DNA of 64,000 bases from Candidatus Saccharibacteria bacterium RIFCSPHIGHO2_12_FULL_41_12 (GCA_001790445.1 MGCQ01000008.1:90676-154675); one strand, 5' to 3'. Shown: positions 20,654 through 55,922, counted from the first letter of the stretch. The notes: generated by a model from the letters alone, not told the origin. Program-made: numbers and translations.

Positions 20654-20671
20654 GCTTAAGGAGGGAAAACC
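20654..20671 (+). repeat. intergenic repeat module M2, copy 2
   Basis: GCTTAAGGAGGGAAAACC, identical to 571-588. Begins immediately after the stop codon at 20651-20653. Confidence 0.6.
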
Positions 20672-20680
20672 TCGTCTGTA

Positions 20681-20778
20681 GAATCGAATCAGTACCTAAA
20701 AGAGAGCGTTTCGAGCCGAGAAGATATCTTCTCGGTCTGCACTCCGCTTATACTCTCTTTTAGGTACTGATTCGATTC
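20681..20778. repeat. 98-nt hairpin with a perfect 26-bp stem and a nested 20-nt palindrome
   Basis: Arms 20681-20706 and 20753-20778 are exact reverse complements. Inner palindrome CCGAGAAGATATCTTCTCGG at 20716-20735. Confidence 0.8.
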
Positions 20779-20816
20779 CATCAGGATTTGTAACTCGTAC
20801 TAATTTTATAATCTTT

Positions 20817-20860
20817 AGAATATCATTTTTGATACACGTGTACAGAAAATGATATTTCTG
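20817..20860. repeat. palindrome module M3, copy 2 (inverted relative to 839-890)
   Basis: The reverse complement of 20819-20857 matches 845-883 at 37/39. ACACGTGT core. Confidence 0.7.
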
Positions 20861-20891
20861 GTTTATGCTATTTATGTTCTGAGTTTCTTTG

Positions 20892-20920
20892 TTACTTTCT
20901 TGGTCGGTACAAGAAAGTAA
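20892..20920. repeat. hairpin module M4 (TTACTTTCTTG/CAAGAAAGTAA)
   Basis: 11-bp perfect stem. Its 10-nt arms are identical to those of hairpin 30645-30674. Confidence 0.65.
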
Positions 20921-20990
20921 GATATAAACGTATTGAAAATAATTTGAGATAAAAGTCACAAATAATCAGTAGTTACTAAATTATAAGAAA

Positions 20991-26459: not shown

Positions 26460-28265
26460 ATGAGCGTACTATCAGAAGAAAACCAGCAACTACTCGAGAA
26501 GTATTTGGTAGAGGAAGGCGTTATATCACAGGTTAAGCTTGAAAGTGTCAAAGAAAAAGCCAATGCAAACTCTGCGCCAATTCTGGCTACTTTGGTCGAC
26601 GAGGCACAAGTCTCGAACGAGGTCCTCACTAAACTTATGGCCAAGATCAACCATGTTCCTTACGTCAATTTACAGGATGCAAGAATAGACAAACAGGTTT
26701 TGAGGTTATTGTCTAAAGAAGTTTCACAACGTTATATGGCCGTGCCACTGGGACAAATCCAAAATAAATTAGTTGTAGCCATGCTCGACGCCGACAATGT
26801 CCAGGCAGTTGATTTTTTGTCAAGTCGTATCGGTCGTCCTCTTAAGGTTTATACCGCCAGCGAAGAAGGCATTATAAAAGTCATTAAGCAATACGACGAA
26901 GATATTGAAGCAGATGTTACTAGTACAGTTGGTAGCATATCTTCTGCTGCAACAGAAGAAGCCCAGCAGATCAAAGAAGCGGCTAATGCTCCCACAAACA
27001 GCAACATCAAGACTATTATTCAGGATTCACCGATTTCAAAAGCTCTATCAGCTATTTTGGAGTATGCGGCGCGTACACGGGCTAGTGATATTCACATTGA
27101 GCCACTTGAGCACGAGTTGAAAATTCGTTGTCGAGTTGATGGAGTACTACGTGAGATCATGAAATTACCAAAAAGCACCGAACCGCCACTTATTTCCCGA
27201 ATAAAAATTCTTAGCAATCTTAAAATTGACGAGCATCGTATCCCGCAAGATGGTCAATTTACTGTTGACGTAGAGGGTAATTTGATAGACTTGCGTATAG
27301 CTATCTCGCCTGTGATTTGGGGTGAACAAGTTGTGATCCGTCTGCTTGATAAATCAGGCACGAGCTTAAAGCTCGAAGACATGGGCTATACCGGTCGTGC
27401 TCTAAGAACAATAAAAAAAGGCGTTGCTCAATCAAACGGTATGATTTTAACCTCTGGACCAACGGGTTCTGGTAAATCAACCTCAATGTATGCGTTAATA
27501 CAGGAAATAAAAAACGACACTATCAATATAGTTACGCTTGAAGATCCTGTTGAGTATAAAATTGACGGGATCAACCAAATCCAAGTTAACGCAGAGGTTG
27601 GCTTGACGTTTGCATCTGGGCTCAGGTCTATTTTGCGTCAAGATCCCGATGTTGTCATGGTTGGAGAAATTCGCGACAAAGAGACAGCAGCTCTTGCAGT
27701 GCAAGCTGCGTTGACGGGGCACTTGGTCTTTAGCACGCTTCACACCAACTCTGCTGCTGGCATTTTGCCCAGACTTTTGGACATGGGGATAGAACCATTT
27801 TTGATTGCTAGCACTGTTAGAACTGTCATTGGTCAAAGACTTGTCAGACGAATTGCCGACAAAGACAAAGAGGCATATACGTCCTCAGGAGCTGAAAAAC
27901 AAGCTATTCTTCAAAATGTAGGTAATCTTCTGCCACCAGACGAAAAGAGTAAACTCGCGTACTGCAAAGATCTCGGTTATGAGGATTTGCCTTTGCGCAC
28001 CCAAAACGCTTATACTTTATATAAGGGCAAAGATAGCCCAGACACCCCGGGTGGCTACAAGGGAAGAATGGGATTGTACGAAGTCTTTGAGGTCAGCGAT
28101 GCGATTCAAAAACTTATAATAAATCATTCAACCAGCGCAGTTATCCAAACCCAAGCCATAAAAGAAGGCATGGTAACCATGAGGCAAGACGGTTATCTCA
28201 AAGCCTTAGCGGGGCAAACAACAATTAGTGAGATTAATAGGGTTGCAGCAGAAGATAATGCATAA
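26460..28265 (+). CDS. pilB: type IV pilus extension ATPase PilB (GspE family)
   Basis: N-terminal T2SSE_N-like domain, Walker A GPTGSGKST, and Asp/His boxes. Confidence 0.95.
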   Translation: MSVLSEENQQLLEKYLVEEGVISQVKLESVKEKANANSAPILATLVDEAQVSNEVLTKLMAKINHVPYVNLQDARIDKQVLRLLSKEVSQRYMAVPLGQIQNKLVVAMLDADNVQAVDFLSSRIGRPLKVYTASEEGIIKVIKQYDEDIEADVTSTVGSISSAATEEAQQIKEAANAPTNSNIKTIIQDSPISKALSAILEYAARTRASDIHIEPLEHELKIRCRVDGVLREIMKLPKSTEPPLISRIKILSNLKIDEHRIPQDGQFTVDVEGNLIDLRIAISPVIWGEQVVIRLLDKSGTSLKLEDMGYTGRALRTIKKGVAQSNGMILTSGPTGSGKSTSMYALIQEIKNDTINIVTLEDPVEYKIDGINQIQVNAEVGLTFASGLRSILRQDPDVVMVGEIRDKETAALAVQAALTGHLVFSTLHTNSAAGILPRLLDMGIEPFLIASTVRTVIGQRLVRRIADKDKEAYTSSGAEKQAILQNVGNLLPPDEKSKLAYCKDLGYEDLPLRTQNAYTLYKGKDSPDTPGGYKGRMGLYEVFEVSDAIQKLIINHSTSAVIQTQAIKEGMVTMRQDGYLKALAGQTTISEINRVAAEDNA

Positions 28266-28277
28266 AGAAAAGGTGGA

Positions 28278-29348
28278 GTGATGAGCAGCGAACTTAGGAT
28301 AGAACTTTTACTAGAAGAAGTAGTCAAGAACAAGGCTTCAGATCTGCACCTGCAAGTTGGTCTTCCGCCAATGATTCGGATTGACGGGGCTCTCAAACCG
28401 TCAACTAGTGGCAGCGTACTCAAAGAAGCCCAAGTTGAATCATTAATTTTCTCAATTCTGGATGATGAGCAAAAACAAATTCTGCTAAAAGACAAAGAAT
28501 TTGATTTTAGCTTTAGTTTTGGTGATCTTGGGCGATTCCGTGTCAACGCTTTTCACGAAAGAGGAAATTTGGCTGCGGCCCTTAGGCTAATACCTAATGA
28601 AATGCTAAGTGTTGAACAACTAGGCCTGCCAAAAATAATTAATAAATTTGCTGAATATCCAAGGGGCCTTGTGCTTATTACGGGGCCGACAGGTTCGGGT
28701 AAATCGACGACTCTAGCTGCTCTTATTCATAAAATTAATACAGAACGCGCTGCGCACGTAATAACTATCGAAGATCCAATCGAATTTACGCACAAAAGCG
28801 CCAAATCAGTCATTGTCCAACGTGAAGTTCACTACGATACATACTCATTTTCGGCGGCGCTTAGAAGCAGTTTGCGTCAAGATCCAGACGTGGTGCTTAT
28901 CGGTGAGATGCGTGACCTTGAAACGATTGCAGCTGCAATAACTATTGCAGAGACGGGGCACTTGGTCTTTGCTACACTTCACACCAACTCTGCTGCGCAG
29001 AGCTTGGACCGCATGATAGATGTTTTCCCGCCACATCAACAGCCACAAATAAGGGCGCAGCTCAGTAATATTTTGATGGCTATTTGTTGTCAGAGACTAG
29101 TTCCTTCTATCGGTGGCGGACGAGTTGTCGCCTCAGAGATTTTGATCGCAAACCCAGCTGTAAGAAACATCATCCGTGAAGGCAAAGGGCATCAGCTCGA
29201 TGCAGTTATTCAGACGGGTGCAGAGTTTGGTATGCAGTCGATGGACAAAACACTTGTCAATTTGATTCATGCGGGTACTATCACTTACGATGAGGCGCGA
29301 ATTGTTGCAGTTGATCTTGATGAACTAGATAGACTTATGAGAGGGTAA
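28278..29348 (+). CDS. pilT: twitching-motility retraction ATPase PilT
   Basis: 356 aa with GPTGSGKSTTLAA and AHVITIEDPIEF. Confidence 0.95.
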   Translation: MMSSELRIELLLEEVVKNKASDLHLQVGLPPMIRIDGALKPSTSGSVLKEAQVESLIFSILDDEQKQILLKDKEFDFSFSFGDLGRFRVNAFHERGNLAAALRLIPNEMLSVEQLGLPKIINKFAEYPRGLVLITGPTGSGKSTTLAALIHKINTERAAHVITIEDPIEFTHKSAKSVIVQREVHYDTYSFSAALRSSLRQDPDVVLIGEMRDLETIAAAITIAETGHLVFATLHTNSAAQSLDRMIDVFPPHQQPQIRAQLSNILMAICCQRLVPSIGGGRVVASEILIANPAVRNIIREGKGHQLDAVIQTGAEFGMQSMDKTLVNLIHAGTITYDEARIVAVDLDELDRLMRG

Positions 29349-29363
29349 GTTGGAGATTCAATA

Positions 29364-30584
29364 ATGTTAACTTTTGAATACGAGGCCAAAAACGCAAAAA
29401 CAGGGGAGAAGATAAAAGCCACCTTGCAGGCAGATTCAGAGGCATCAGCAGCCAAATTGATTCGTGAACAGTCACTAGTCCCGCTGGATATTCGTGCGGT
29501 CGGCTCTGGTGGGTTTACATTCCTTGGTAAATTCCGCAATAGAATTTCCGTAAAAGACAAAATACTCTTCTCTAGGCAGATGTCTACACTTATTAATGCT
29601 GGTTTGCCGTTAGTCCAGAGCTTGCGACAAGTTGATGAGCAGACTGACAACAAAGCTTTTAAAGTAGTCATCGGCAAAATAATCACCGATGTAGAGGGTG
29701 GTTTGGCGTTCTCCAAGGCACTGGCTAAACATCCCGAAGTTTTCAATAACATTTATATTAATCTAATAGAGGCTGGTGAGGTATCAGGAACTCTTGACAT
29801 GGCTCTGTCCAGGATAGCCACACAGCAGGAAAAAGACGCAGATATAATCAGCAAAGTTCGTGGGGCTATGGCATATCCGGCAATAGTTATGCTGGTGATG
29901 ATTGGTGTGCTAGGTTTCATGATTGTCAAGGTTTTGCCCCAGGTTGAAGTCATCTATAGAGATCTTCCAGGAGCACATTTGCCACTTTTGACCGTAGTTT
30001 TATTATCTATTTCGCATTTTACTATCAAATACTGGTGGTTAATGCTGATATTGCTTGGTTTAGCTATATTTGCCACCACACGTTACGCTCGCACGGTAGG
30101 GGGCAAGCAAGTAATCGATCTGTGGAAGATGAAAGCATGGCCAATGGGCCCGCTATTTATGAAAGTCTATATGGCTCGGTTTTCCAGAACTGGCACAACT
30201 CTAGTTGCCAGTGGTGTGCCTTTAATCAAAGTGCTCGAGGTTGTGGCTGGCGCTATCAACAATGTCCATGTTGAGGCTTCTATTAATAAGGCGATAGAGA
30301 AAGTTAAAGGAGGCAAATCGTTAAGCGAATCTCTAACGGGTGATCCAAATTTCTTAACTCTTGTGCCGAACATGCTTAAAATTGGTGAGCAATCAGGGGC
30401 CTTAGAAGATATGATGGAAAAGACTGCAGATTATTATGAAAAAGAAGTTGATAACCAGATCAAAACCATTTCTACTATAATTGAGCCAATGATGATGGTA
30501 GTTCTGGGTATCTCGGCGTTTATTATTGTAGCAGCGGTGCTATTGCCAATTTATGGGCTAGCTGGCCAAAATATCATCAAATAG
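29364..30584 (+). CDS. pilC: type IV pilus platform protein PilC (GspF family)
   Basis: 406 aa with duplicated GspF domains and 3 TM segments. Confidence 0.9.
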   Translation: MLTFEYEAKNAKTGEKIKATLQADSEASAAKLIREQSLVPLDIRAVGSGGFTFLGKFRNRISVKDKILFSRQMSTLINAGLPLVQSLRQVDEQTDNKAFKVVIGKIITDVEGGLAFSKALAKHPEVFNNIYINLIEAGEVSGTLDMALSRIATQQEKDADIISKVRGAMAYPAIVMLVMIGVLGFMIVKVLPQVEVIYRDLPGAHLPLLTVVLLSISHFTIKYWWLMLILLGLAIFATTRYARTVGGKQVIDLWKMKAWPMGPLFMKVYMARFSRTGTTLVASGVPLIKVLEVVAGAINNVHVEASINKAIEKVKGGKSLSESLTGDPNFLTLVPNMLKIGEQSGALEDMMEKTADYYEKEVDNQIKTISTIIEPMMMVVLGISAFIIVAAVLLPIYGLAGQNIIK

Positions 30585-30608
30585 TTCTTTCATTATAAGC
30601 GAATAACT

Positions 30609-31110
30609 CATTGCGATTAAAGCCTTAAAAGGCTTTTTAATCACCATACTTTCTTGTGCTAACAAGAAAGTATGCAAAGAAGTAGCAGGCGGTTGAGCAG
30701 ACTTGATGGGATTTCTTGTCGAGGATTACAACAGACTGCGGAACTCTCTCCCTTTGGTCGTTCAAACAGTCCTCGGCTGATAGTTGTAATCTCGACGAAA
30801 TCTCTCAGGTCTGCTCAAGGCCTGACCCAAGCTTCCCTTGTATATTTCCGTAGGAAATATTATTAATTATGACTTTAGACTGCTTTTTGTCCCCTTGATT
30901 AAAACACCTTTAGATTAAATGGCTACGAACAGATTATTCTGAGGACATGGCTTTATGCCCGACTGGAGGGAGTCCCGGAAGAATAGTATGTTTGTAGTTA
31001 TTTAATCTTAGGGCAGTTTTTGATCACTGGGGTGGCACTTTTTGCTTACTTTTTCTTGCTACAGAGAAAAAGTAAGGTGATAGAAGCCCTGCCAAGGGCT
31101 TAGCGCAATG
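30609..31110 (+). ncRNA. ~500-nt heavily base-paired element (candidate large structured RNA, or a MITE-like inverted-repeat element)
   Basis: Closing stem CATTGCG/CGCAATG. Hairpins at 30618-30638, 30645-30674, 30686-30824, 30842-30860, 30911-31010, 31045-31076 and 31084-31101. G-U pairs favour a plus-strand RNA. Confidence 0.5.
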
Positions 31111-31142
31111 AAGCCTTTAATTATAATTTTTAAAAATTAGTG

Positions 31143-31169
31143 TTGCATTCTTGCTCAAGATGGTATATT
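31143..31169 (+). promoter_or_regulatory. candidate pilin promoter
   Basis: TTGCAT (31143-31148), 15-nt spacer, TGgTATATT extended -10 (31161-31169). The spacer is short. Confidence 0.3.
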
Positions 31170-31221
31170 TTGATATTGTATAAGCATAAACATTAATAAA
31201 TCAAAGAAAAGGGTTGGGGAT

Positions 31222-31701
31222 ATGAGAGATTTAATAAAAAAACAAAAGGGTTTCACTATCATCGAGGTATTGATAGTTCTAGCCATAGCCGGACTTATCA
31301 TTTTGATAGTCTTCCTCGCAGTGCCATCATTGCAAAGAAACAGCCGTAATACACAACGTAAGAATGATATTAGTGCACTACTAGGCTCAATACAAGAATC
31401 AACTAATAATAATAATGGTCAACTTCCTACTCGAGCAACCGCAGCCGATTCTGGTAAACTATCATTTTATGCAATAGCTGATTTAGAAGGAAACTTACAG
31501 AATGCAGCAGCTGTTGGTTCGGTCACTCCAACGGAGTCTAGTATACAGTTGAATAATTTCTCAAAATGTCCGGCTGCTAACCCAGCACCAGGGGCTATAG
31601 CTGCTTTGACAATGGGAGCATCTCCAACAAAGAGAAACGTTACTGCTGTATATCGTATTGAAACAAGTGGTGCTTCTCAAACAATTTGCCAAGACCTATA
31701 A
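31222..31701 (+). CDS. pilA: type IV major pilin
   Basis: Prepilin leader plus G/FTIIEVLIVLAIAGLI class III signal. GGGGA RBS. Confidence 0.9.
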   Translation: MRDLIKKQKGFTIIEVLIVLAIAGLIILIVFLAVPSLQRNSRNTQRKNDISALLGSIQESTNNNNGQLPTRATAADSGKLSFYAIADLEGNLQNAAAVGSVTPTESSIQLNNFSKCPAANPAPGAIAALTMGASPTKRNVTAVYRIETSGASQTICQDL

Positions 31702-31764: not shown

Positions 31765-32604
31765 GTGCTAATGATTATAGGGATATTAGTTATATTGGGG
31801 CTTTGTTTTGGTAGTTTTGTCAATGCTTTGGTCTGGCGGGTTCATCAACAGAGTCTGCCAAAGGCAAAACAACCAAAAAAAGTCAATCTATCTATCAAAA
31901 AAGGTCGATCTGTCTGCGTCAATTGTCATCATATTTTAAGCTGGCAAGATTTACTGCCGGTTATCAGCTGGGTTGGCCTGAGAGGCAAATGCAGATATTG
32001 TCACAAATCTATATCTTGGCAATATCCACTAGTAGAAATCCTCATGGCTGCTGTATTCGTAATCTCGTACAATTTTTGGCCGTTTAAATTTACAGGTCCT
32101 GAGGCTGCCGTATTCGGTCTGTGGCTAGCGGTTGTAGTTAATTTAGTAGCTCTAGCAGTTTATGACATCAAATGGATGCTTTTGCCCAATAGATTAGTCA
32201 AAATAGCCTTTGGATTTGCTTTAGTGTTGAGTGTGATCACTATATCCATTCGTAGTGGAGAAATATATGTAGATTTGGCAAAAGTATTGGTAGCTATGGC
32301 AATATCTGGAGGTCTTTTTGCCATTTTGTTCTATGTCTCCAGTGGCAAATGGATAGGCGGAGGCGACGTAAAGTTGGGCTTTGTACTTGGGCTTGTCGCT
32401 GCTACCCCAGTTAATGCTTGTTTGATGCTATTTATTGCATCTTTGCTTGGTTGTTTGGTAACGCTGCCGGCCGTAGCTTTGGGCTCTAAGAGCATGCAGA
32501 CCAAAATACCCTTTGGACCCTTTTTGATAATTGCGGCTTTTGTTGTGTATCTGTTTGGCGTAGTAGTGGCAGATGCTTACTTGCGATTACTCGGTCTTTC
32601 CTAA
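31765..32604 (+). CDS. pilD: prepilin peptidase/N-methyltransferase PilD (A24 family)
   Basis: CxxC...CxxC zinc motif (CVNCHH...CRYCHKSISWQYPLVE) and GGGDVKL. Start is GTG 31765 or ATG 31771. Confidence 0.9.
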   Translation: MLMIIGILVILGLCFGSFVNALVWRVHQQSLPKAKQPKKVNLSIKKGRSVCVNCHHILSWQDLLPVISWVGLRGKCRYCHKSISWQYPLVEILMAAVFVISYNFWPFKFTGPEAAVFGLWLAVVVNLVALAVYDIKWMLLPNRLVKIAFGFALVLSVITISIRSGEIYVDLAKVLVAMAISGGLFAILFYVSSGKWIGGGDVKLGFVLGLVAATPVNACLMLFIASLLGCLVTLPAVALGSKSMQTKIPFGPFLIIAAFVVYLFGVVVADAYLRLLGLS

Positions 32605-36565: not shown

Positions 36566-37480
36566 TTATGGTTTCTTGCGGTGAAATTTGTCATGCACGC
36601 TCTTAAGATGTGGATCTGTTATGTGGGTGTATATCTGAGTAGTCGAGATATTGCTGTGTCCCAGCATTGCCTGTACGGACCTCAGATCGGCACCGTTCAT
36701 CAGTAGATCCGTGGCATATGAGTGACGCAGAGTATGTGGCGATACATGTTTAGTGATGCCGGCCTTTAGGGCGTAACTTGCGACTAATCTTTGCACACTC
36801 CGTGGGGTTAGACGCATGAAATTTCCGGTTTGGTCAACCTTTTTGAATCCTCCAATGCGCGCAAACAAGGGCGGACTAGAATCAGTGCGTTTTTCTAAGT
36901 ATTTTGCTATCCAACTAGCCGCTTCTTCACTGATAAAAATCGGACGGTCTTTTTGACCTTTTCCGCGCACCATAAATTCTCTGCGAGTTAGATTGATGTT
37001 GTCTTTGTTCAAATTGGTCAGTTCTGACACACGTAGCCCACTAGAAAACAGTAATTCCAGTATCGCTCTATCGCGCAGTCCTGCCAAACTTTCAACATTT
37101 GGTTGGCTGATTAATCTCTCTACTTCTTCGTTGTCCAAAAATGTTACCTGAACGCGCTTGGTTCTCGCCAGTTCAATTTTATCTGCACTAACAACTTCAA
37201 GATCTCTTTTTGAGCAGTACTTTAAGAAGCTTCTCAGAGCAATCAAATGATAATTCTGAGTATTTTTTTGCAGTTCATCACTGTTATTTGTGCCAAGCCT
37301 ATTCAGCCAAAGCCGCCATTTGCGTATCAAATCCGGAGTAATTTCAGCTACGTCGATATCCCCCGCAAAATCTACTAATCTGGTCAAATAATGCCGATAA
37401 TTACTAATAGTTTTTAGAGACCTATTTTGCTCAATTTCCATGTGCTCTAGATATTCTTCGATCATCGGCTCAAGCTTCAT
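36566..37480 (-). CDS. xerC: tyrosine recombinase XerC/XerD family
   Basis: C-terminal catalytic signature HTLRHSYATDLL...GHSNISTTQIYTH and an N-terminal SAM-like domain. Confidence 0.9.
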   Translation of the reverse strand: MKLEPMIEEYLEHMEIEQNRSLKTISNYRHYLTRLVDFAGDIDVAEITPDLIRKWRLWLNRLGTNNSDELQKNTQNYHLIALRSFLKYCSKRDLEVVSADKIELARTKRVQVTFLDNEEVERLISQPNVESLAGLRDRAILELLFSSGLRVSELTNLNKDNINLTRREFMVRGKGQKDRPIFISEEAASWIAKYLEKRTDSSPPLFARIGGFKKVDQTGNFMRLTPRSVQRLVASYALKAGITKHVSPHTLRHSYATDLLMNGADLRSVQAMLGHSNISTTQIYTHITDPHLKSVHDKFHRKKP

Positions 37481-38056: not shown

Positions 38057-38132
38057 GCCCTGGTAGCTCAATGGATAGAGCAGTTCCGTCCTAAGGAAAA
38101 GGTTGTAGGTTCGACTCCTACCCAGGGTACCA
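38057..38132 (+). tRNA. tRNA-Arg (anticodon CCU)
   Basis: Hand-folded cloverleaf: acceptor GCCCTGG/CCAGGGT, D arm GCTC/GAGC, anticodon loop GTCCTAA, T arm GTAGG-TTCGACT-CCTAC, encoded CCA. Confidence 0.9.
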
Positions 38133-40557: not shown

Positions 40558-40633
40558 TGGCGGGCTCGACCGGATTTGAACCGGCGATCTCCTCCGTGAC
40601 AGGGAGGCGTGATAACCACTTCACTACGAGCCC
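40558..40633 (-). tRNA. tRNA-Asp (anticodon GUC)
   Basis: Acceptor GGGCTCG/CGAGCCC, anticodon loop CTGTCAC, T arm GCCGG-TTCAAAT-CCGGT, encoded CCA. Confidence 0.9.
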
Positions 40634-43407: not shown

Positions 43408-43484
43408 TGGTGGGCGATAGAGGATTCGAACCTCTCACCTCCACAACGTCAATGTGGCGCTCTAGCCAAATGAGCTAATCGCCC
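43408..43484 (-). tRNA. tRNA-Val (anticodon GAC)
   Basis: Acceptor GGGCGAT/ATCGCCC, anticodon loop TTGACGT, T arm AGAGG-TTCGAAT-CCTCT, encoded CCA. Confidence 0.9.
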
Positions 43485-51728: not shown

Positions 51729-52082
51729 TCAGACTATTGGCTGATCGCCCCGCCATAGGTGGGGAGGAAAGTCCGGGCAGCATATGAGGAGGGCAGTTGC
51801 TAACGGCAACCGGAGGAGACTCTAGGGAAAGTGCCACAGAAACTAAACTACCTCTGTTTACAGAGGAAAAGGTGAAAAGAGTGGGGTAAGAGCTCACAGC
51901 TGTCTATGGTGACATAGACGGGAGGTAAACCCTGCCTGCTGCAAGGAGAGAAACGAGCATTAAAGTTCCTCGCTGTTTGTTTCTCATAAGACCCGCTTGA
52001 CCCTAATGGCAACATTAGGGCTAGATAGATGATCAGCCCCCCGACTTGTCGGGGGACAAAACCCGGCTTATAGATAGTCTGA
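51729..52082 (+). ncRNA. rnpB: RNase P RNA, bacterial type A
   Basis: GAGGAAAGTCCGGGC (P4 5' strand), ACAAAACCCGGCTTAT (P4 3' strand), P1 TCAGACTAT/ATAGTCTGA, P2 GGCTGATC/GATCAGCC, GGTAAACCC. Confidence 0.95.
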
Positions 52083-52087
52083 TAATT

Positions 52088-54807: not shown

Positions 54808-55922
54808 TCATTACTCATTATACATTTAATAAATATATAGTTCTAAATTTCTGCTATAAACAAAAACAACGGCCTGCGAGGTGCCGTTGTTAACAGATAC
54901 GTTTTTGTTTTTGAGCACTTTATTTGTTCAAAGTGCTATGTACATAATAGTAGTACTCATGCTTACTGTCAACCACTTTTTTTAGATTTATTTTGATAAT
55001 AATAATCAATTAAATATTAAGCAGGTAACCAATAGCTAATTAATAGACAAATATGATGCAAAATTCCAACAAAATATATCAAATTATTTAATAATTAATT
55101 ATTAAATAATAGTGCTTTTGGCGCGTGGCTAATTGATAAGTTATCCTATGTATTGGATAAAGATTCCTTAGGTGTATATTTATGTTTGTATTAATAAATT
55201 AGCTGCATCTTAACTTTTTTGTGTTAAAAGTTAAAAATCAACTAACAATTATTCTCTGAATAATAATTAAACAGCCAGGATACAATTAAATATGTGTTTA
55301 TAATCACGATCCAAAATTATGTATTGATTTTGTAATTTTAGACGATATGTATTTTGCGTTAAGAAAATGAATATAAGAGCCACAATAAGGTTTATGCAAA
55401 AGTCTAATGTATACAAGTACACAAGCTACCGTTTGTGAAATAAATTATTAATATAAAATAAGACATTTGTCAACTTACATATTGACAAGCCCAAAAAATA
55501 TATTTTTCGTCCGCATGTACATAAATATTCTGTCCTAAAAGCTGGGTAAGCTCAAAGTATATAAATATTGATAAAATCCAAATAACAGCCCAATGAATAG
55601 CCAATATTGAAACATATATAATTTATTCATTAAAACTATTGTAAATAATATTACAAAGATAAATACGATTTTTAAGTAGTAACAATGTGCATAATACAAC
55701 TATAATACATTGACTAATAATTAAAAATATACTAGCATATACCTATAGTAATCTAAAATAAAAATAAGAAGTTTTTGGGAAGATTACTAGAGATTTCGCT
55801 CATGGTTGTGCTATTTAGACCATCCTGAGCGGTCAGTCAGCCAATGGATAGTAAGCGCTAAAAGTAATTATAAAGAGCGGTTTTACTGTCCTTGGCGTTT
55901 TGTTTGCTTTAGAAAGGGGAAA
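54808..55922. other. 1.1-kb AT-rich ORF-free region with several palindromes
   Basis: No ORF of 60 aa or more in any frame across 54808-55805. Palindromes include TTTAATAATTAATTATTAAA (~55087-55106), TTATCC-N8-GGATAA (~55140-55159) and TTGTCAA-N8-TTGACAA (~55467-55488). Confidence 0.7.

Follow-up and report, generated by a model that had tools for sequence, protein, structure and literature searches.

A hairpin-rich insertion between pilC and the pilin gene of a Saccharibacteria pil locus, probably a mosaic of dispersed non-coding repeat modules

What are the nested helices that fill the space between pilC and the major pilin gene (pilA) in a Saccharimonadales (Saccharibacteria/TM7) contig: a large structured RNA, a mobile element, or a switch placed upstream of the pilin? 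The window, i.e. the whole stretch of 64,000 nt that was analysed, holds a type IV pilus locus whose gene calls proved correct: T2SSF, N_methyl and XerC/D-type domains were found in PilC, the pilin and the tyrosine recombinase respectively (Table 1). The pilC-pilA gap (30585-31221) measures 637 nt, against a pilC-pilin distance of 0-139 nt in most of the 80 other Saccharimonadales species whose pilC loci made up our comparison set; one tally puts this distance at 0-134 nt in 79 of the 80 and in four of five close relatives.

No other intergenic gap of the window is as structured as this one; some of the others are structured too. On the plus strand its MFE is -228.6 kcal/mol, against -157 +/- 5.8 kcal/mol for dinucleotide shuffles (z = -12.3); on the minus strand it is -194.9 kcal/mol (z = -11.8 against shuffles), the plus-strand fold being better by 31-34 kcal/mol. 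The original prediction had singled out the plus strand for its wobble pairs, and a modest excess is indeed present: 16 G-U pairs on the plus strand versus 9 on the minus strand over 30599-31114, and 5 versus 2 in the ~100-nt hairpin alone. Both strands nevertheless fold very well, and the structure of the block is a property of DNA palindromes as much as of either transcript.

The block measures ~516-555 nt and its sole ORF, a frame of 64 aa, has no match in Pfam. The helices that had been read from the sequence were all recovered: the terminal heptamers, the long bulged hairpin, the 8-bp hairpin, the ~100-nt hairpin and the perfect hairpins of the two ends, of which the right one has the 12 bp foreseen and the left one 13 bp instead of 12. 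The ends (~70-95 nt) are roughly 73% complementary. That they are imperfect inverted copies of one another, as proposed, is borne out by the inverted repeats I2 (30 nt at 73%) and I3 (24 nt at 71%) and by the alignment of one arm with the other; the termini CATTGCG/CGCAATG are perfect over only 7-8 nt. The entire block is a degenerate large inverted repeat made of two arms (the left part versus the reverse complement of the right). Each arm is composed of a short GC hairpin, a 12-13-bp TACTTT-type hairpin and one long-hairpin module, which is of type A in the left arm and is read as a diverged, inverted type B in the right; a central piece lies between them.

Table 1. Features of the pil locus and of the hairpin block, in window coordinates.
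Feature	Position	Strand	Remarks
pilB	26460-28265		window gene order
pilT	28278-29348		window gene order
pilC	29364-30584		T2SSF domain in product
Whole inserted segment	30585-31138		from pilC stop to just 5' of promoter block; ~555 nt extra
Left copy of flanking 12-nt direct repeat CTTTCATTATAA	30587-30598		partner 31115-31126; possible target-site duplication
Left terminal inverted heptamer CATTGCG	30609-30615		pairs with CGCAATG 31104-31110; L197 has GTTGCG
Short GC hairpin AAAGCCT/AGGCTTT, then T-run	30619-30638	+	MFE structure; weak-terminator-like for pilC
Perfect 13-bp hairpin CATACTTTCTTGT-GCTA-ACAAGAAAGTATG	30645-30674		repeat I8; conserved arm sub-module
139-nt bulged hairpin, type-A module	30686-30824	+	long-hairpin repeat family
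Apical core ACAACAGACTGCGGAACTC ... TCAAACAGTCCTCGGCTG	30728-30779	+	loops UGC/UC and ACUC/UCAAACAG around GGA/UCC
Central piece	30839-30905		8-bp hairpin 30842-30860 plus AT-rich sequence
~100-nt hairpin, read as diverged inverted type-B module	30907-31013	-	repeat I1
Perfect 12-bp hairpin CTTACTTTTTCT-TGCTACAG-AGAAAAAGTAAG	31045-31076		repeats I10, D1; right-arm counterpart of 30645-30674
Right-arm GC hairpin AAGCCCT-GCCA-AGGGCTT	31084-31101		MFE structure
Right terminus CGCAATGAAGC	31104-31114		window similarity to L003 and L200 copies ends at 31114
Pilin promoter block	31139-31200	+	TTGCAT 31143-31148, TATTTT 31166-31171; context, outside the hairpin element
Major pilin (pilA)	31222-31701		N_methyl in product
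Prepilin peptidase	31765-32604		window gene order
Minor pilin-like genes	3' of prepilin peptidase, to 36518		window gene order
Tyrosine recombinase, XerC/D-type	36566-37480	-	domain match

We then compared the site with that of the nearest relatives of the window, whose PilC proteins are 84-89% identical to its own. Five of them (L006, L195, L196, L198 and L199) are without the block. The promoter block of the window is 80-87% identical to the sequence directly 3' of pilC in L006, L195, L196 and L198, and L199 matches window positions 31166-31215 at 88% identity. The prediction that the pilin promoter lies downstream of the block thus holds, the promoter being conserved in relatives devoid of the element. 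Since ~14 nt separate the pilC stop from the TTGCAT...TATTTTGATATTGTATAAGCAT promoter block in L006, L195, L196 and L198, ~555 nt (30585-31138) are extra in the window. The block is an insertion, and it left the pilin promoter region intact downstream.

One further relative, L197 (88% PilC identity), has the left end of the element at the same pil site, its contig ending in the loop of the 13-bp hairpin. When the gap was searched by BLAST against the 80 Saccharimonadales pil loci the promoter block was the sole match, and the covariance model described below (R1) gave 0 matches over 650 kb around these 80 loci. Three other long pilC-pilin gaps do not contain the element: in L037 and L082 the pilin is present and had been passed over by the motif scan, and L020 has two minus-strand ORFs there instead.

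Within the species of the window, the contig L003 follows the window sequence to 31114 and then enters an unrelated gene of 88 aa, the homologues of which sit between the gene of a class II ribonucleotide reductase (RNR) and ileS. In the window species (L200-L205, contigs that come partly from the same samples as the pilC contigs) the RNR-to-88-aa spacer is 571 nt long and holds a paralogous composite. The corresponding spacer of a related species (L191/L192) has 421 nt and one inverted arm with a type-A module, and that of L185 has 185 nt and no arm. Window positions 30647-30876 align with L191 4842-4609 at 79% identity over 237 nt, and positions 30872-31114 with L200 2737-2977 at 90% over 245 nt. 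The L200 composite consists of GC and 13-bp hairpins, a type-B long hairpin, a centre and a right arm; the type-B core in its left arm, in forward orientation (UGCGGGACUCC...GUCCUC), is related to type A yet distinct. The central piece of the window block is common to the RNR-to-88-aa spacers of the window species and of the related species, and the alignment of L185 with L191 puts part of it outside the arm insertion. The pil copy thus has sequence in common with another intergenic locus, which recombination or the copying of a segment explains no less well than classical transposition does.

L196, in which the pilC-pilA site is empty, comes from the same sample as L192 (SRR14271370). If both belong to one organism, its RNR locus is filled and its pil locus is empty.

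L003 itself is a single contig of 2.4 kb that joins pilC and the element to the 88-aa gene and not to pilA; its right end is of the L200 type, and the switch from one variant to the other lies within ~50 nt of this end. It is either a real recombinant between two copies or a low-k misassembly. A simple k=141 assembly chimera is unlikely, the copies sharing no identical run of 141 nt. The element is also where the contigs L002, L005, L004 and L197 stop, either in the middle of the palindrome or at points of divergence between variants, as is expected of a repeat in an assembly graph; same-species contigs break off or change variant within it. Multiple copies had been proposed as the mark of a miniature mobile element (MITE). 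BLAST of the gap against the 64-kb window found no second copy, i.e. the window has one clear copy, and the element is multi-copy in the species and beyond.

These copies allow each part of the arms to be followed. The short GC hairpin at 30619-30638, which scores under the threshold of a consensus terminator scan, is retained with a different sequence in L197, L191 and L200. The 13-bp hairpin is also found in L197, L191, L200 and L163, and at positions 20891-20921 of the window. In the right arm, L003 and L200 keep the 12-bp hairpin with changes confined to its loop; their counterpart of the GC hairpin at 31084-31101 is AAGCCTCC-TT-GGAGGCTT, in which the stem is kept and both of its sides are changed. 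The reverse complement of the ~100-nt hairpin carries UUCCGGGACUC ... GUCCUCAGAA, and this hairpin is 90-95% identical to its L200 paralogue. It was not detected by R1 with filters off. We read it as a type-B relative of the type-A module from its position in the arm, the short motifs that they share and the L200 paralogue, i.e. it would be the inverted type-B module of an arm common with L200. As for the outer boundary, the flanking direct repeat D10 (11/12 identical, spacing 528) could be due to chance, such repeats being common in the AT-rich gap; the empty pil sites of the relatives are too diverged to confirm it, and no unambiguous target-site duplication was found at the block.

The long type-A hairpin is itself variable within the species. 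In L004, where pilC is identical, the 139-nt hairpin shares only 90% identity with that of the window; the changes compensate each other and leave the apical sequence ACAACAGACTGCGGAACTC...TCAAACAGTCCTCG untouched. Metagenome contigs were scanned with the core pattern AGACTGCGGAAC-N8-38-CAAACAGTCCT, which gave 99 stretches, ~97 of them clearly homologous. Two long contigs, BNJT01002489 and BNJS01003949 (2.4-2.6 Mb, ~37% GC), each bear at least 20 copies. In BNJT01002489, Rho shares 71% identity with its counterpart in a Johnsonella sp. and 67% with that in Lachnoclostridium, which makes the host Lachnospiraceae-like, of the gut/oral type, and not a CPR bacterium. In these copies the hairpin measures ~140-240 nt and often forms an inverted pair in a repeated unit of ~1.08 kb; many have an A-run on one side and a T-run on the other, as bidirectional terminators do. 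Modules are all intergenic, 38 of the 54 unique contexts lying 70-200 nt 3' of a co-directional gene, and either orientation is found, inverted pairs being frequent. Besides the pil locus, arms and modules are present elsewhere in the species of the window, in species related to it and in a phylum unrelated to it.

We aligned 25 non-redundant representatives of the family, the window included. RNAalifold predicts for this alignment a single long hairpin of 36 pairs, 21 of which show changes on both sides, a number reached by none of 500 shuffles. Paired cells amount to 94% of the alignment, compared with 82.7% in partner-shuffled and ~40% in partner-slid controls. The UGC/UC and ACUC/UCAAACAG loops and the GGA/UCC pairs are identical in the 25 representatives and in the ~97 metagenome loci, an invariance partly imposed by the search pattern, the loci having been picked by that motif; the apical hairpin between the core motifs is variable. 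Two variant cores deviate: UCAGACAG in L191, and CUGUGGAACUU...UUUAAACAGUCCUCG in the second module of L163. These two show that the truly conserved parts of the core are CUG-Y-GGAACU and A-R-ACAGUCCUCG. The stems of the module covary around an invariant apical core, and the pairing is under structural constraint.

R1, the covariance model built from the 25 sequences, recognises the window hairpin, one of its training sequences, at 30690-30817 on the plus strand (67.9 bits, E = 1.7e-15). It finds 135 modules in the 99 metagenome loci and scores the L191 module, outside the training set, at 43 bits. A candidate third type of module at window positions 20674-20788 obtained 8 bits, which is not significant. 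A search of Rfam had been suggested for the block, and no known RNA family matches it: the whole window at the gathering threshold and 30400-31400 at E up to 10 gave chance-level matches only (mir-1, snoRNAs), those in 30400-31400 including none with E < 0.18 and all scoring far under their gathering thresholds. Nor did the canonical Lachnospiraceae composite match any Rfam family. The module was not found in the plasmids of PLSDB (distant mode) or in IMG/VR scanned with the core pattern, and a literature search by core sequence and keywords retrieved no relevant paper containing the core sequence. The long-hairpin family is new: previously undescribed, and absent from Rfam.

The block is probably a BIME/MITE-like insertion, i.e. 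non-coding, non-autonomous and selfish, put together from dispersed hairpin modules in mosaic fashion. Among the alternatives of the original prediction was a non-autonomous inverted-repeat mobile element, and the copies elsewhere and the empty sites of relatives uphold it, with the refinement that what is dispersed are modules combined into a mosaic. Several traits expected of a MITE are found here: a small non-coding block, terminal inverted repeats, dispersed copies, and a site that is filled in L197 and empty in L006, L195, L196, L198 and L199. The invariant core and covarying stems, retained across Patescibacteria and Bacillota, exceed the conservation typical of MITEs, which counts against this reading and could point to a functional RNA. 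Clustering of ORFs across the 99 module loci showed no recurrent transposase beside the modules and no cognate autonomous IS with the same ends, and a scan of the window's pil-locus ORFs likewise revealed no transposase and no other enzyme of mobilisation.

We propose that the modules are spreading selfish DNA and that an enzyme which the block does not encode mobilises them in trans. Its most likely target would be the hairpin in folded form, invariant internal loops included, whether RNA or single-stranded DNA; we favour the folded hairpin as the unit of recognition because the invariant unpaired bases sit in a freely covarying stem, and RAYT recognises REP/REPIN hairpins in a comparable way. 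Recombination between copies would then reshuffle the arms. At the pil locus the insertion may have no dedicated pilus function, its likely side effect being that hairpins which resemble terminators and would be open to RNases now separate pilC from the intact pilin promoter. In the relatives, pilC is too close to the -35 box of the pilin for a terminator to fit between them; the insertion puts a GC hairpin and a T-run directly 3' of pilC, followed by 500 nt of stable helices. A plausible outcome would be that pilA is uncoupled from read-through of the pilBTC transcript.

The alternative that deserves most discussion, although we regard it as rather doubtful, is that the module is a functional structured RNA: a cis-acting 3'UTR element, a terminator, a stabiliser or a multi-copy small RNA, whose loops bind a protein. 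At the pil locus it would act as a plus-strand pilC 3'UTR affecting pilC/pilA expression, much as the original prediction had it. The strong covariation around invariant unpaired nucleotides and the conservation of the core across two phyla speak for it, as do the placement of most modules (38/54) 70-200 nt 3' of a co-directional gene and the A-run/T-run flanks of many Lachnospiraceae-like copies. The better fold of the plus strand and its G-U pairs (16 versus 9) would likewise hint at selection on a plus-strand transcript; the plus strand is however the G- and T-rich strand, so that a mutation bias could create the excess, and a tally of the pair table of the family alignment reveals no excess of G-U over A-C outside two conserved positions. 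Against a pilus-specific RNA stand nearly all orthologous pilC-pilA spacers, which are without the block, and the element lies upstream of the conserved pilin promoter. Moreover, with modules in both orientations and often in inverted pairs, one member of each pair is antisense in any transcript. Of the RNA proposal, the covarying stems and the better plus-strand fold stand; an RNA dedicated to the pilus is less likely.

It is very improbable that the block is a recombination switch or a hot spot of rearrangement, the arms being recombined by the nearby tyrosine recombinase or homologously so as to exchange the sequence that follows pilC. In its favour, the arms are inverted repeats, the locus encodes a XerC/D-type recombinase, and L003 joins pilC and the element to the 88-aa gene rather than to pilA. 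But L003, as a single contig, may be an assembly chimera of two 90%-identical copies, and the recombinase is of ordinary XerC/D architecture and sits 5.5 kb away from the block, six other genes intervening. The perfect inverted termini measure only 7-8 nt. The internal orientation of the window is seen in all six contigs that cover the pil site (L001-L005 and L197). The pilin promoter is not within the repeats, and as a promoter the element itself contains just a weak 9/12 match on the minus strand. The proposal of an invertible switch upstream of pilA is thus not sustained; passive insulation or termination between pilC and pilA is plausible. At the other extreme, the block might be a chance pile-up of unrelated terminator hairpins in a long spacer, its GC hairpins being terminator-like and other gaps of the window also structured. 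This is excluded, its probability being practically nil: the fold stands at z = -12, the two arms are homologous to each other, paralogous copies at other loci have 79-90% identity, and the covariance model of the family gives a highly significant match.

To place the mosaic insertion that we favour among known systems, we compared it with several types of repeats. By analogy, the closest would be the BIME/REP-REPIN mosaics and the hairpin MITEs (Correia, BOX, RUP). In Enterobacteria and Pseudomonas, BIMEs, REPs and REPINs are mosaic extragenic palindromes mobilised by RAYT Y1-transposases. Like the block, they are non-coding mosaics of a few hairpin motifs in alternating orientation, their inverted doublets form long hairpins usually just 3' of genes, and they show compensatory stem changes and presence or absence between close relatives. 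The present modules differ by their length (100-240 nt versus ~35 nt for REP, i.e. 4-6 times longer), by their hosts, Patescibacteria and Lachnospiraceae, and by the conserved part, which is the apical internal loop here and the stem foot with a GTAG-type tetranucleotide in REP. The MITEs Correia/NEMIS (Neisseria), RUP and BOX (Streptococcus pneumoniae) and ERIC resemble the block as small, non-autonomous, intergenic elements with terminal inverted repeats, which form long transcript hairpins and may hold terminators or change the stability of mRNAs; the modular build of BOX (boxA-B-C) recalls that of the arms here. Unlike these MITEs, the block has no clear target-site duplication, no cognate IS found and perfect termini of 7-8 nt only, and its family places the same core module in differently bounded composites, such as the 1.08-kb Lachnospiraceae unit with GCAACGTAAACAAT-type ends.

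In PATEs and at the ends of IS200/IS605 a folded hairpin with unpaired or bulged bases is the unit of recognition, as proposed here for the module, and a target-site duplication is not obligatory. The end hairpins of IS200/IS605 are recognised as single-stranded DNA by TnpA. The left and right end hairpins of these IS are however co-oriented on one strand, whereas the present modules are inverted or alone, and a scan of the pil-locus ORFs found no tnpA or tnpB near the block. The Rfam families OLE, GOLLD, ROOL, HEARO and raiA share with the block several hundred nucleotides of conserved covarying helices, an obscure function and discovery by comparison; they are single-copy orthologous genes, unlike this lineage-specific insertion of repeated modules in two orientations. 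Integron attC sites, retron msr/msd and IS110 bridge RNA were dropped for a wrong conservation pattern, the lack of an associated gene or of an Rfam match, as were TnpB/IscB omega RNA, plasmid single-strand origins and self-cleaving ribozymes on the same grounds, these six being set apart mostly by general features of the families.

For the pil locus, the favoured reading means a repeat insertion that separates pilC from the pilin promoter, and not a pilus riboswitch or a phase-variation switch; nothing that we found ties the block to pilus regulation. More generally, these data document dispersed hairpin repeats in the very small and dense genomes of Saccharibacteria, of which we found no published description, present in some and absent in others of a set of close relatives, and with evidence that copies recombine. 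They define a repeat module that is missing from Rfam and shared with Lachnospiraceae, and R1 could serve for masking false ncRNA candidates, accounting for assembly breaks and seeking the enzyme that recognises the invariant loop. A more ambitious reading, which we consider quite unlikely, takes the long-hairpin module as a horizontally mobile structured nucleic-acid element of Patescibacteria and Bacillota, either a new class of protein-binding regulatory RNA that repeats carry about or the cis-recognition hairpin of a mobilisation machinery of a new kind. If this is true, the pil locus would be a natural rewiring of the operon structure of a type IV pilus. Of greater interest would be an invariant loop that is the mark of a new system of protein-RNA or protein-ssDNA recognition, shared by Patescibacteria and Lachnospiraceae.

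Other intergenic gaps of the window contain pieces of the same kind. A TTACTTTCTTG hairpin at 20891-20921 adjoins a 100-nt hairpin, a 39-nt hairpin is common to 845-883 and 20819-20857, and at 572-695 lies a 125-nt element with 86% identity to the spacer downstream of RNR in L185. These related pieces therefore indicate a small repertoire of intergenic hairpin modules, combined differently at each locus.

Four short-read contigs of the window species and of a related species (L002, L005, L004 and L197) end within the pil element, the two-armed hairpin block that lies between pilC and the pilin gene. These breaks fall either in the middle of the perfect 13-bp palindrome or at points where the copy variants diverge (see Table). 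The element acts as a systematic assembly breakpoint.

A further contig of the same species, L003, joins pilC and the element to an 88-aa gene whose usual upstream neighbour is the ribonucleotide reductase (RNR) gene. The junction was compared over L003 1990-2370 and L200 2930-3010, L200 being the RNR locus of the window species, which carries a paralogous copy of the element. The join is either genuine, through rearrangement or through gene conversion between the element's two copies, or else a chimera of the assembly. Downstream of the 88-aa gene, the spacer that precedes ileS measures 563 nt in the window species versus 229 nt in another species (L185); the extra part is a further long hairpin of ~170 nt, TATAGCCCCAACAA...TTGTTGGGGCTATA. 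Upstream of ileS in L200 a T-box match is weak (25 bits, E = 0.004), i.e. below the gathering threshold.

Two other gaps of the window are structured. That at 20654-20990 (337 nt) folds strongly, with a z of about -10 relative to mononucleotide shuffles, and contains three hairpins. The reverse complement of the 100-nt one reads GCGGAGUGCAGAC[hairpin]CUCGAAACGCUCUC and is, by its sequence, reminiscent of the module core, i.e. the invariant apical loops of the long-hairpin module; the covariance model of this module (R1, 25 aligned representatives) gave the 100-nt hairpin 8 bits, which is not significant. In the second gap, 492-985 (z about -6.9), positions 845-883 repeat the 39-nt hairpin of the first with 95% identity. 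Positions 572-695 share 86% identity with the spacer 3' of RNR in L185 and so represent another dispersed intergenic element.

In a Lachnospiraceae-like genome the modules are found inside a repeated non-coding unit of ~1.08 kb, composed of two inverted modules with GCAACGTAAACAAT-type 14-mers at each end and in the middle; this unit looks like a larger MITE bearing modules. The intergenic block of the metagenome locus L163 is built like the window element: end hairpins CATACTTTG...CAAAGTATG, two inverted modules (64 and 30 bits with R1) and a central hairpin. In one Saccharimonadales species (L020) the pilC-pilin gap reaches 965 nt (L020 5216-6180) and holds two ORFs on the minus strand, 115 and 89 aa long, which may be a small gene pair that was inserted there.

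Table. Location of contig ends, hairpins, composite units and RNA genes (window numbering unless a locus is named)
Feature	Location	Remark
Contig end, L002	30659	
Contig end, L005	30691	
Contig end, L004	30813	
Contig end, L197	~30665	
Hairpin TTACTTTCTTG...CAAGAAAGTAA	20891-20921	resembles the pil element's 13-bp hairpin
100-nt hairpin	20681-20780	gap 20654-20990
39-nt hairpin	20819-20857	gap 20654-20990
88-aa gene-ileS spacer features, window species	L200 3268-3440 and 3558-3797	
~1.08-kb unit	L087 7790-8870	paralogues on BNJT01002489 and BNJS01003949
600-nt intergenic block	L163 (Ga0105047_10224082), oriented 665-1270	44% GC organism
RNase P RNA, bacterial class A	51729-52086	259 bits
tRNA-Arg (CCT)	38057-38132	
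tRNA-Asp (GTC)	40558-40633	
tRNA-Val (GAC)	43408-43484	

Elsewhere in the window, the 998 nt at 54808-55805 are devoid of ORFs of at least 110 aa, have a GC content of only 25% and are moderately structured (z about -4).
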